Virus record (IMG/VR): IMGVR_UViG_2863231158_000001
Strand: one strand, 5' to 3'
Source of the DNA: a virus
Lineage: Duplodnaviria; Caudoviricetes
Length of the DNA stretch: 64,000 nt
Shown here: one piece after another, positions 28,654 through 29,597 of the stretch
How positions within the stretch are numbered: position 1 is the first letter of the stretch
Layout of the letters: every line of letters starts with the position of its first letter
The notes under the pieces: generated by a model
Database searches by the model: none
The model's input: the letters and a program-made list of their open reading frames with translations, nothing else
Told to the model about the DNA's origin: nothing
Program-made: the position numbers and the translations under genes

Positions 28654-28856
28654 CGGGCAACCCTTGCTCTCCACATAGGACCGGGAGAGAAGCCGGTTCG
28701 CCCCCAACGGGCGCGGGCAACCCTTGCTCTCCACATAGGTCCGGAAGAGGGACAGGTTCGGTCGCCCCGAGCGCGGGCAACCCTTGCTCTCCACATAGGT
28801 CCGAGAGAGAAGCCGGTTCGCTCGTCCAACGGAGGCGGGCAACCCTTGCTCTCCAC
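28654..28856 (+). repeat. Four-copy array, 21-nt invariant core CGGGCAACCCTTGCTCTCCAC, period 60/60/62
   Basis: Cores at 28654, 28714, 28774 and 28836; the intervening 39-41 nt are semi-conserved. Confidence 0.95.
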
Positions 28857-28861
28857 TACTT

Positions 28862-29110
28862 GCCGAGAGCGGGATTACCGCGCACCCGCCCTACAGGGGG
28901 ACACACGGCGGACTGAGTGTCCGCTCTCGGCGACAAGCGCTGTTCATGCACCACGCACCCCGCGTTACTCGGGGTGGCCGCGGGGGTCGTGTGGCAGCGT
29001 GCGGGGGTCGTACCGCCCATCAGTAACCCACTCGTCCGCGAGTGCGCCGAACGGGGTTGGAAGCCCGTACGGCCCCCACCACGTCCGGACCGGTCCTCGC
29101 CGGCGAGGAC
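28862..29110 (+). ncRNA. Candidate structured non-coding RNA (four consecutive stem domains)
   Basis: Stems 28862-72/28921-31, 28951-64/28979-94, 29003-13/29067-77, 29093-99/29104-10; no convincing ORF. Confidence 0.45.
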
Positions 29111-29116
29111 GACCAT

Positions 29117-29215
29117 GCCCGCTGACCCAACGGCTAGAGGTGCGCGGTACCGGCCCCCTCGGGGAGACCCGGAAGCAACCCGCAGAGTTCCCCGGTTCGA
29201 GTCCGGGGGCGGGCA
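29117..29215 (+). ncRNA. tRNA-like element with expanded, non-canonical anticodon arm
   Basis: Acceptor GCCCGCT/GGCGGGC plus A, D-like arm ACCCAACGGCTAGAGGT, T arm CCCGG-TTCGAGT-CCGGG; a ~42-nt hairpin replaces the 17-nt anticodon arm. Confidence 0.65.
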
Positions 29216-29246
29216 CTCCACCACAACGACGACCAGGCGGTGACCC

Positions 29247-29597
29247 ATGACCCCATGCATTGAGTGCCCCGACACGGCAACTCGCCGAGGACGCTGCGAC
29301 GTTCACGACACACAGCACCAGGCGCGTCCCTCGGTTCGTACCCGACGTGCACGCGGTAGGCGCCGAGCGAGACGCCATGATGCGGCGGCGCGGCTCCGCG
29401 CACGGATACGGGAGCGCGGTCACGCGTGGTGTGACTGGTGCTTGGGCGACTTCCCCGCGGATGCGGTGGACGTGGACCATGTGCGGCCCCTCGCCATGGG
29501 CGGGACGGACACGGCGGGCAACGTGCAAGTGCTGTGCCGCGGGTGCCACGGGCTCAAGACGAGCACGGAGTTCGGGGCCGCGAGGGTCGCCGCGTAG
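29247..29597 (+). CDS. Small HNH endonuclease with Arg-rich segment
   Basis: CDWC..DVDHVRPLAMGGTD..NVQVLCRGCHGLKT; N-terminal CxxC..CxxH. Confidence 0.88.
   Translation: MTPCIECPDTATRRGRCDVHDTQHQARPSVRTRRARGRRRARRHDAAARLRARIRERGHAWCDWCLGDFPADAVDVDHVRPLAMGGTDTAGNVQVLCRGCHGLKTSTEFGAARVAA

Follow-up and report, generated by a model that had tools for sequence, protein, structure and literature searches.

In a 64,000-nucleotide (nt) window from an IMG/VR provirus (IMGVR_UViG_2863231158_000001; 86,761 bases in the source record), the 911 nt between a large serine integrase gene and a small HNH gene, here called HNH1, contain no convincing gene (28336–29246). By the window we mean the whole stretch of DNA that was analysed. 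This gap holds a structured RNA of about 350 nt, which is a chain of small autonomous modules (D1, D2 and D3, with a GC-rich hairpin, D4) ending in a tRNA-derived element, hereafter the mimic, that has a hairpin in place of the anticodon loop. We infer from the DNA that the modules share one transcript with tRNA genes, and all later statements on transcripts are to be read in the same way. Together with the tandem promoter-like cores that precede it, the RNA would form the non-coding head of a late transcription unit of the phiC31 type, a reading that we consider evenly balanced between right and wrong.

Covariation, strand and modularity of the RNA

More than 100 homologues of HNH1 were found in Streptomyces, and an alignment of 36 retrieved 80 genomic loci (the HNH-first sample). 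In blastn comparisons of the gap with these loci, positions 28865–29216 were conserved upstream of the HNH gene at 70–95% nucleotide identity. The single-sequence fold of 28862–29112 consists of four successive domains, and the comparative fold returned the same helices; the four consecutive stem domains described at 28862–29110 in an earlier, sequence-only reading of this DNA were thus recovered by both approaches.

Pairing was evaluated in a MAFFT alignment of the window with 38 loci, using as controls the same pairs with the partners slid by one to three columns. Across the 104 pairs tested, 95.2% of the cells were paired, as against 42–49% in the slid controls, and 34 pairs had changed on both sides (9–17 when slid); on four of five covariation measures, none of 500 shuffles reached the observed value. 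A second alignment, of 68 matches that include distant viral contigs, was fitted to the model and is biased by this towards the model structure; here, 96.8% of the cells were paired over 50 tested pairs (40–46% when slid), and 31 of these 50 pairs were compensatory (10–13 when slid). Covariation among homologues, which the sequence-only reading had proposed as a check, is therefore strong in both alignments.

In stability, the stems do not surpass dinucleotide shuffles, an outcome that the same reading had listed as speaking against it. The z value was −0.91 for 28862–29112, with 37 of 200 shuffles as stable, and +0.45 for the tRNA-like part; the longer interval 28540–29230 gave −2.69, but from 20 shuffles only. 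Free energies no better than those of shuffles are usual at 70% G+C and, stability not being significant, covariation was used instead.

G-U pairs account for 7.1% of the cells, and the fraction of paired cells, 95.2% on the plus strand, would be 89.6% if the alignment were read on the other strand. At four positions a G-U pair is conserved in 34 to 39 of the 39 sequences, indicating that the plus strand is the one that folds. A coding region was also considered, since spurious open reading frames (ORFs) cover the tract on both strands; however, 25 of 387 indel runs in pairwise comparisons are multiples of three, a spectrum that rules coding out. The structured RNA with a tRNA-like 3′ domain proposed from the letters is, therefore, real, strand-specific and non-coding, with a tRNA-derived end, and the window holds a single copy of it.

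All four domains lie on the plus strand. D1 (28863–28930; helices 1–3) is a long irregular hairpin with invariant UACCGCGCACCC and CGGCGGACUGAG, and all six pairs of its outer stem are compensatory. D2 (28937–29000) is a three-way junction with invariant GCCCGUGCACC and GUCGUGAGGC, in which seven of the eight pairs of helix 4 are compensatory, and D3 (29003–29077) has a stem around invariant CCGCCCAUNAGUAACC, a variable hairpin and then GCCGAANGGGGUUGUAAGC, with compensatory changes in eight of the ten pairs of helix 8. The hairpin D4 (29083–29110; helices 11–12) closes what we term module A, and four of its five pairs are compensatory in the model-fitted alignment, where it is helix 10. D1, D2 and D3, each of about 65 nt, are separately conserved, and D1 directly follows a promoter-like box wherever upstream sequence was read. 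In some relatives, second, partial copies of D1 lie upstream of the full RNA (loci L018, 4311–4457; L111, 2065–2156; L056, 4541–4633 and 4823–4906), indicating that tandem duplication reaches beyond the promoter box.

A pattern scan of IMG/VR added nine contigs, six of them phiC31-like, with HNH and terL products 41–45% and 31–35% identical, respectively, to those of the window. In these six contigs the model matched D1, D2 and D3 separately and in other arrangements. The order is D1, tRNA-Trp, tRNA-Leu, mimic, D3, HNH in contig L141 and D1, tRNA-Lys, an odd tRNA, mimic, D3, HNH in L144, whereas D1 is followed by tRNA-Thr and HNH in L142, and by four tRNAs and HNH in L143. Contigs L145 and L147 share the order D1, mimic, HNH, D2, terS; D3 was picked up in L147 alone, between mimic and HNH. 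In both contigs D2 is located beyond the cohesive-end site (cos) and before terS, and in L147 we could read a cos-like sequence and an inverted repeat of the phiC31 type. Outer stems can be wholly exchanged with the junction nucleotides kept, as in D3 (ACCGCAC/GUGCGGU to CCUGGG/CCCAGG), and such a complete exchange of the D3 outer stem is seen in both L141 and L144.

Searches that started from the RNA matched 22 of 401 Streptomyces species genomes at E ≤ 1e-10, including the centre genome, which had been chosen for having the RNA; 16 of these matches include module A and six consist of the tRNA-like part only. The RNA is thus present in about 4–5% of the sampled Streptomyces species, and a class-wide sample of 150 genomes beyond Streptomyces gave no match. 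Scanning 28300–29700 against Rfam 15 (E ≤ 10) yielded two unrelated chance matches below the gathering score, and no family was reached; blastn of the window segment and of a segment from locus L037 against 50,697 phage records produced no match. With nhmmer and covariance models (CM) we obtained no significant match to the RNA in phages phiC31 and Rowa: the best CM matches in phiC31 (E 0.036–0.059) lay in the wrong places, and one in Rowa (E 0.028; 14.5 bits) was judged to be noise.

We found no description of these RNA modules in the literature searched, and the Streptomyces motif lists in the part of PMC11109978 consulted include none linked to phages or HNH genes. D1–D3 and the mimic, with its 6 + 6 base-pair (bp) minihelix, appear to be new; their kinds are known, namely phage non-coding RNA beside tRNAs, tRNA-like processing element and phage late promoter. 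Like the prophage RNAs GOLLD and ROOL, as described in the portions of their sources used here, the RNA is phage-borne, strongly structured, placed beside tRNA genes and of unknown function. Unlike them, and with neither being listed at E ≤ 10 in Rfam 15, it is a chain of ~65-nt modules, found here only in Streptomyces.

A tRNA-derived mimic in a tRNA slot

The mimic (29117–29215, plus strand) lies between D4 and HNH1. It comprises a 6-bp acceptor stem (29117–29122/29209–29214), U8 (29123), a D arm (29125–29141) whose loop AACGGCUAGA contains GG, a 5-bp anticodon stem (29143–29147/29180–29185) that encloses a hairpin insert of about 32 nt in place of the loop, a T arm (29190–29208) with a 6-bp stem and the loop UUCGAGU, and the discriminator A29215. 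The tRNA-shaped domain proposed by the sequence-only reading for these positions was borne out, in that the acceptor, D, anticodon and T stems (helices 13–16) are all supported by covariation; helices 13, 14 and 16 are 99–100% paired, with compensatory changes. The mimic resembles a tRNA in its acceptor, D and T arms, in a T loop of the form UUCRANY and in the GG of the D loop, but it has about 32 nt where a tRNA has a 7-nt anticodon loop on a 5-bp stem. ARAGORN at default settings called no tRNA in the region and, at a threshold of 80%, a 92-nt 'tRNA-???'; the Rfam tRNA model gave no match there at E ≤ 10. The acceptor and T stems add up to 12 bp (6 + 6), the same total as in a tRNA (7 + 5), and relatives carry canonical-length tRNA paralogues in the same slot. 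We conclude that the mimic descends from a tRNA.

Within the HNH-first sample, nhmmer detected the long mimic (90–104 nt) in 40 of the 80 loci, a canonical-length relative only (73–78 nt) in 12, and neither in 28; mimic and canonical-length tRNA occur together in six loci. For the loci with canonical length only, ARAGORN called nine tRNA-Leu(UAG) and two tRNA-Leu(CAG), none of which has a long variable arm, and a 78-nt tRNA-Phe in L046, leaving L075 uncalled at default. Examples of 75–77-nt tRNAs with Leu anticodons and no long variable arm are found in L015 (4896–4970), L018 (4895–4971), L025 (4825–4899) and others. There is also a 76-nt form of the mimic lineage with an apparent 8-nt anticodon loop, UACCCAAU, in L075 (4885–4960), L127 (2047–2122) and L122 (1461–1537). 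In phiC31 the slot of the mimic is taken by tRNA-Thr, and in Rowa by seven tRNAs.

Other identities were considered and rejected. The 3′ end ...CUCCACCA is like that of transfer-messenger RNA (tmRNA), and an upstream GGAGUG could pair, but RF00023 gave no match and the acceptor stem is local and covarying; furthermore, the tRNA-like domain is contiguous, unlike the split domain of tmRNA. On the whole provirus, RF00023 found a host tRNA-Met only, at 25.4 bits (cut-off 47). A tRNA with a 259-nt intron (ARAGORN -i, 28884–29216) is contradicted by the covariation of 29117–29122 with 29209–29214 (GC to AU, 10 sequences), and the group I intron families of Rfam did not match the region. Finally, GGGUGG..CCGCG-like strings are present that could suggest a T-box-like tRNA-binding leader, for which there was no Rfam match at E ≤ 10.

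tRNA-like processing signals are known from MALAT1-mascRNA and from the tRNA punctuation of polycistronic transcripts, which are eukaryotic nuclear or organellar. The mimic is likewise a non-decoding tRNA-shaped element just 3′ of a non-coding RNA, whose 3′ end it could set by means of RNase P and RNase Z; cleavage, unlike in those cases, is only predicted for the mimic.

Promoter-like cores and the proposed head of a late operon

Four tandem units of 60–62 nt, as described in the sequence-only reading, are present at 28654–28713, 28714–28773, 28774–28833 and 28836–28895, with 100, 80, 80 and 60% identity to the first; Tandem Repeats Finder reported a period of 60, 3.3 copies and 81% matches. 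They had been taken for small RNAs released by processing, and instead they repeat, at the DNA level, a promoter-like core that is common to the integrase and sigma-factor genes. This 20-nt core, GGGCAACCCTTGCTCTCCAC, occurs six times in the window at up to three mismatches, always on the plus strand, with none expected from 100 shuffles. Four copies make up the array (28655–28674, 28715–28734, 28775–28794 and 28837–28856), the last one ending 6 nt short of the first pair of D1. A copy with two mismatches (26512–26531) lies 7 nt before the likely integrase ATG at 26539, and another with one mismatch (57140–57159) lies 36 nt before a sigma-factor-like gene (57196–58008, plus strand; PHROG 'RNA polymerase sigma factor', 7e-40), whose product has a Pfam Sigma70_r2 match under the cut-off. 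No further copy precedes the late genes downstream (terL to tail, plus strand) in the window.

Each related phage has its own variant of the core, of the form GGGAA..., about eight variable bases and then TCCCCAC or CCCTAC. Two to four tandem copies, 60–85 nt apart and with unrelated fillers, stand before the RNA, and one copy stands at the integrase, where precisely 7 nt separate core and ATG in the window and all eight relatives displayed. The longest integrase ORF starts at 26482, so that the core sits within the extension upstream of 26539. The true start is probably the ATG at 26539, and the integrase mRNA may be leaderless, or nearly so, if it began about 8 nt past the core. A search of IMG/VR for the exact core gave no matches.

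In the phiC31 record X91149.1, a 'late lytic' promoter is annotated at 174–194, between int and tRNA-Thr; gp29, the HNH gene gp30 and the cohesive ends come after it. The array has the position of such a promoter, between int and the tRNA/HNH/cos block, with several copies on the same strand. Two more plus-strand copies of the phiC31 box can be seen in NC_001978.3, at 18487–18506 (before gp52) and 23031–23050 (before gp3). The window resembles phiC31 (X91149.1, NC_001978.3) in the order int, gap, phage-specific promoter, leader, tRNA slot, HNH; in a box of about 20 nt with a GG start, a C/T-rich block and a CA end (the window cores end in CCAC), present in several plus-strand copies per genome; and in a sigma-factor-like protein, which is shared with the phiC31 group. 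Unlike the window, phiC31 has a single promoter copy at this site, a leader of only 116 nt, no significant match to D1–D3 and a real tRNA-Thr.

From the distribution of the core, the fixed 7-nt gap at the integrase and the annotated late promoter of phiC31, we read the array as four putative tandem promoters, specific to the phage, with a predicted start about 8 nt downstream of a core. Past copy 4 this start would fall at 28864–28865, which coincides with the onset of sequence conservation in the relatives: when the gap was compared by blastn with the HNH loci, most matching loci aligned from ~28865 onwards.

Upstream of the array there is an inverted repeat of 18 nt, 89% complementary, around a 57-nt AT-rich spacer (28549–28643, plus strand; arms 28551–28568 and 28626–28643), and a second copy of the element lies at ~48480–48565 on the minus strand. 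These elements have 14–18-nt arms, GGTGGNGGAGTGAC...GTCACTNCNCCACC, and an AT-rich spacer of about 55 nt resembling TTTACA-N17-TAGAAA; in relatives L020, L060 and L051 the spacer of the first has almost the same sequence. The element could be a host-type promoter between operator arms and is, as regards the RNA, context only.

In the late-operon reading, the four cores would direct transcription rightwards, and a transcript starting about 8 nt past a core would fold at once into D1, D2, D3 and the GC hairpin. Next on the transcript would come the mimic, with its 12-bp acceptor/T minihelix and D arm kept and a hairpin for the anticodon loop, and then the gp30-type HNH gene, the minus-strand ORF at 29758–30093, the second HNH gene, terS and terL. 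RNase P and RNase Z would cut at the mimic, separating leader from mRNA, and the modules would act in cis on the late transcript or on the polymerase, through read-through of terminators and minus-strand ORFs, stabilisation or processing. Such a cis-acting role, including the crossing of a 10-bp inverted repeat (29712–29744) and of the antisense gene before terS, is put forward tentatively. With comparable reserve, we suggest that D1, D2 and D3 could each stand for a new class of small phage RNA that folds autonomously, with invariant junction nucleotides and freely covarying stems. Strung among tRNAs where the late operon of phiC31-like Streptomyces phages begins, they could serve as an RNA-only or protein-assisted device for processive antitermination, which would reprogramme the late-transcribing polymerase, or as self-processing or protein-sponging RNAs, and the mimic could be a dedicated RNase P/Z release signal.

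HK022 put and Bacillus EAR are promoter-proximal antiterminator RNAs that act in cis. Similarly, the RNA described here would be a structured RNA right after the promoter of a long transcript. Unlike put and EAR, to which it has no sequence or structure match, it consists of three modules, 250 nt in total and in no fixed order, with a tRNA-type cleavage site directly after them.

Support for the late-operon reading comes from what was observed directly: the repeats, the distribution of the core, the plus-strand structure revealed by covariation, the modularity of D1–D3, the ancestry of the mimic, and the orthology and synteny of the HNH gene. Several points weigh against it. The promoter assignment derives from a GenBank annotation in phiC31 and from position; the core does not fit the usual −35/−10 spacing, a sigma-70 scan found nothing, and the core is partly palindromic and could, therefore, be an operator instead. 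phiC31, Rowa and some of the HNH prophages do without the modules, which are thus dispensable for this type of phage. A tRNA or mimic right after the leader would sever a cis-acting RNA from the polymerase, a poor fit with a put-like mechanism, and nine of the 51 loci with a full module A have no mimic or tRNA at all. The stems of 28862–29112 and of the tRNA-like part, as seen above, do not exceed shuffled sequence in stability. Start site, processing and expression are predictions, and so are expression and RNA ends in the alternative that follows.

The modules could, alternatively, be stable small RNAs that act in trans, cut from the late transcript by the tRNA-processing enzymes (RNase P at the 5′ end, RNase Z or exonucleases at the 3′ end) and binding targets such as host defence, translation or packaging factors; the tRNA cluster of T4, for comparison, encodes stable RNAs. 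The interleaving of modules with genuine tRNAs (D1-tRNA-tRNA-mimic-D3 in L141 and L144) argues for this, as do the minus-strand ORFs found between module A, mimic and HNH, as if these were separate genes. The non-decoding mimic with its 12-bp minihelix also resembles a pure processing signal, loop and junction sequences are invariant and more conserved than the neighbouring proteins, and four tandem promoter-like cores suggest high output. However, D2 lacks flanking tRNAs in L145 and L147, the nine module A loci devoid of mimic and tRNA would have no such signal, and no target was identified. We consider a trans-acting role possible but doubtful.

HNH1, its neighbours and the remaining alternatives

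The 116-aa HNH gene that the sequence-only reading had noted 31 nt after 29215, with the segment RTRRARGRRRARR, is confirmed as the ORF at 29247–29597 (plus strand; Pfam HNH_5 5.1e-9, HNH 3.3e-8). The second HNH gene noted before terS is also there (HNH2, 30427–30801, plus strand; PHROG phrog_144, 4.5e-23), terS itself (30905–31384, plus strand) being identified by Terminase_4 at 1e-17. HNH1 had seemed surplus beside HNH2; it is, on the contrary, the counterpart of phiC31 gp30, a cos-adjacent HNH gene. The identity between HNH1 and gp30 of phiC31/phiBT1 is 46% over residues 2–110 (94% of the length), and in phiC31 gp30 is the rightmost gene of the genome, ending 45 nt before the annotated cohesive ends. 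HNH2, in turn, shares 64% identity with the HNH protein from the right end of the Rowa genome, and the terL of that phage shares 84% with the terL of the window. The prophage thus joins a phiC31-type int-tRNA-HNH block to a Rowa-type HNH-terS-terL block, which explains the 'surplus' gene without any new function.

Both HNH proteins match phrog_144 (HNH1 at 2.2e-18) and have the same architecture, which combines a Cys/His knuckle at the N-terminus with a basic helix and the HNH domain. Over its full length, the HNH1 profile matches small stand-alone HNH enzymes, including 5h0m, which we take to be the HNH protein of phage GVE2. HNH1 belongs with the small phage HNH proteins found beside cos or the terminase (phiC31 gp30, GVE2 HNH, HK97 gp74 type), but it is not directly beside cos and terS: whereas the phiC31 gene lies 45 nt from cos, the minus-strand ORF and HNH2 intervene in the window. 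No similarity to the phiC31 or Rowa ends (cos) was detectable in 29598–30910.

The integrase ORF (26482–28335, plus strand) contains Resolvase, Recombinase and Zn_ribbon_recom domains, and terL and the other late genes, to the tail genes, run from 31362 onwards on the plus strand, downstream of HNH2. The minus-strand ORF between HNH1 and HNH2 (29758–30093; 111 aa) starts with a signal-peptide-like N-terminus, matches neither Pfam nor PHROG, and is of the kind that phage workers term a moron. The inverted repeat at 29712–29744, between HNH1 and this ORF, has perfect 10-bp arms, CACGTTGAGG...CCTCAACGTG, and looks like a two-way terminator inside the presumed late transcript. A 21-nt direct repeat (28323–28343 and 29585–29605; 90% identity) spans the stops of integrase and HNH1 and so brackets the RNA-HNH block; as the footprint of a cassette it was rejected, being absent in all 57 relatives with a readable HNH stop, and it is probably local or due to chance. 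A 13-nt repeat, GGCACTCCACCAC, was likewise discarded as a deletion junction, because it is not the junction in relatives that lack the RNA.

The sequence-only reading had proposed that small RNAs processed from this block might bind or regulate the HNH protein; in the form considered here, the RNA, or pieces of it, would bind, guide or regulate the Arg-rich protein as a ribonucleoprotein. RNA and gene are on the same strand, and the terminator-like site that we sought between them was not found, which makes the single transcript suggested by that reading plausible. In the HNH-first sample, module A lies upstream in full (at least 200 of 246 profile positions) in 51 of the 80 loci and in part in 11, that is, at least partially in 62; nearly all RNA-first matches with module A have an HNH gene within 1.5 kb, and the basic segment of the protein is nearly invariant in the HNH1 clade.

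The HNH clade, however, also occurs without the RNA, which that reading had named among the outcomes that would speak against it. No module A was found upstream in 18 of the 80 loci; two of these have too little upstream sequence and most have HNH fragments only, but L020, L048, L050 and L066 carry near full-length HNH genes without it. Two promoter boxes and a D1 remnant are all that L020 has directly before its HNH gene. Likewise, phiC31, with its 46% identical counterpart gp30, gave no significant hit with the RNA model. Between module A and the HNH start lie 44 to 1209 nt (median 146; the overlapping outlier L078 was set aside), and more than 300 nt in 14 of the 51 loci; in several loci minus-strand ORFs are inserted at module boundaries. 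These two observations, HNH without RNA and so variable a gap, leave a partnership unsupported. Co-occurrence itself says little, because the phage backbone is conserved (integrase upstream in 54 of the 80 loci, HNH2 downstream in 67) and is co-inherited as a whole, and in the distant relatives D2 is found beyond cos, before terS.

The inserted minus-strand ORFs lie between module A and mimic or between mimic and HNH in L023 (4634–4996), L024 (2575–2979) and L027 (4566–4970), with more in L032 (4769–4993), L006 (4666–4863) and L022 (4628–4816). One product resembles HU-type DNA-binding proteins, another begins with a signal-peptide-like stretch, and two have about 62–65 aa.

Comparison with IscB and its omega RNA (HEARO), in which an HNH-domain protein likewise lies beside a large structured RNA, also speaks against a ribonucleoprotein. 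IscB combines in one protein of some 400–500 aa a RuvC domain, split by a bridge helix, with HNH. HNH1, with 116 aa, has Pfam HNH_5/HNH only and no RuvC domain, in agreement with the statement of the sequence-only reading that it is not IscB. In the PDB profile search, IscB and Cas9 appeared only at about 0.003 (IscB at E 0.0031, residues 48–102 only), and the HEARO/omega RNA model did not match 28300–29700 at E ≤ 10 in Rfam 15. Nor is there a guide-like variable segment of useful length, with 6–25 nt between core and D1. The segment of gp30 is basic but not Arg-rich, and the Arg-rich run of HNH1 is best described, from the aligned sequences, as a clade-specific intensification of that basic segment. 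We therefore regard the ribonucleoprotein as quite improbable. The fixed neighbour of the RNA is the promoter box, not HNH, and HNH1 is a neighbour in what would be the same operon rather than a demonstrated partner.

It is very improbable that the conserved stems are DNA-level signals only, such as packaging or cos accessory sites, operator arrays or a replication origin. The int-HNH-cos-terS neighbourhood, the D2 that adjoins cos in L147 and the partly palindromic core would suit such sites, but the compensatory changes keep pairing, which double-stranded protein sites do not need, and the conserved G-U pairs become A-C mismatches on the other strand, with the drop in pairing from 95.2% to 89.6% given above. 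In addition, the modules of the window lie ~1.7–2.0 kb upstream of terS, with HNH1, the minus-strand ORF and HNH2 between. That the array encodes repeat RNAs of its own, CRISPR-like or like the ToxI antitoxin repeats, is scarcely credible despite its regular 60–62-nt period, direct orientation and place upstream of a gene: the parts between cores are 60–80% alike and no unique spacers, the conserved part is a 20-nt core that also stands singly before the integrase and sigma genes, relatives have two to four copies at 60–85-nt spacing with unrelated fillers, and the neighbours are integrase and HNH, with no adjoining cas or ToxN-like gene.

Among the temperate phages of Streptomyces, phiC31 and its relatives serve as the models, and integrase tools in wide use were taken from them. 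To our knowledge, the manner in which the long late operon of this type is switched on and read through is poorly understood. The region examined here yields a well-supported family of structured RNA modules, as yet without a name and open to modelling and searches, and a mimic with canonical ancestors in sister phages, which is a clean case of a tRNA gene becoming something else. It also provides a testable map of putative tandem phage promoters, leader RNA, tRNA slot and HNH. Control of late transcription by the modules, or their release as stable RNAs, would amount to a new regulatory layer in actinophages and could supply compact RNA parts for the engineering of Streptomyces; should no effect of theirs be measurable, the int-HNH interval has still gained a corrected annotation.

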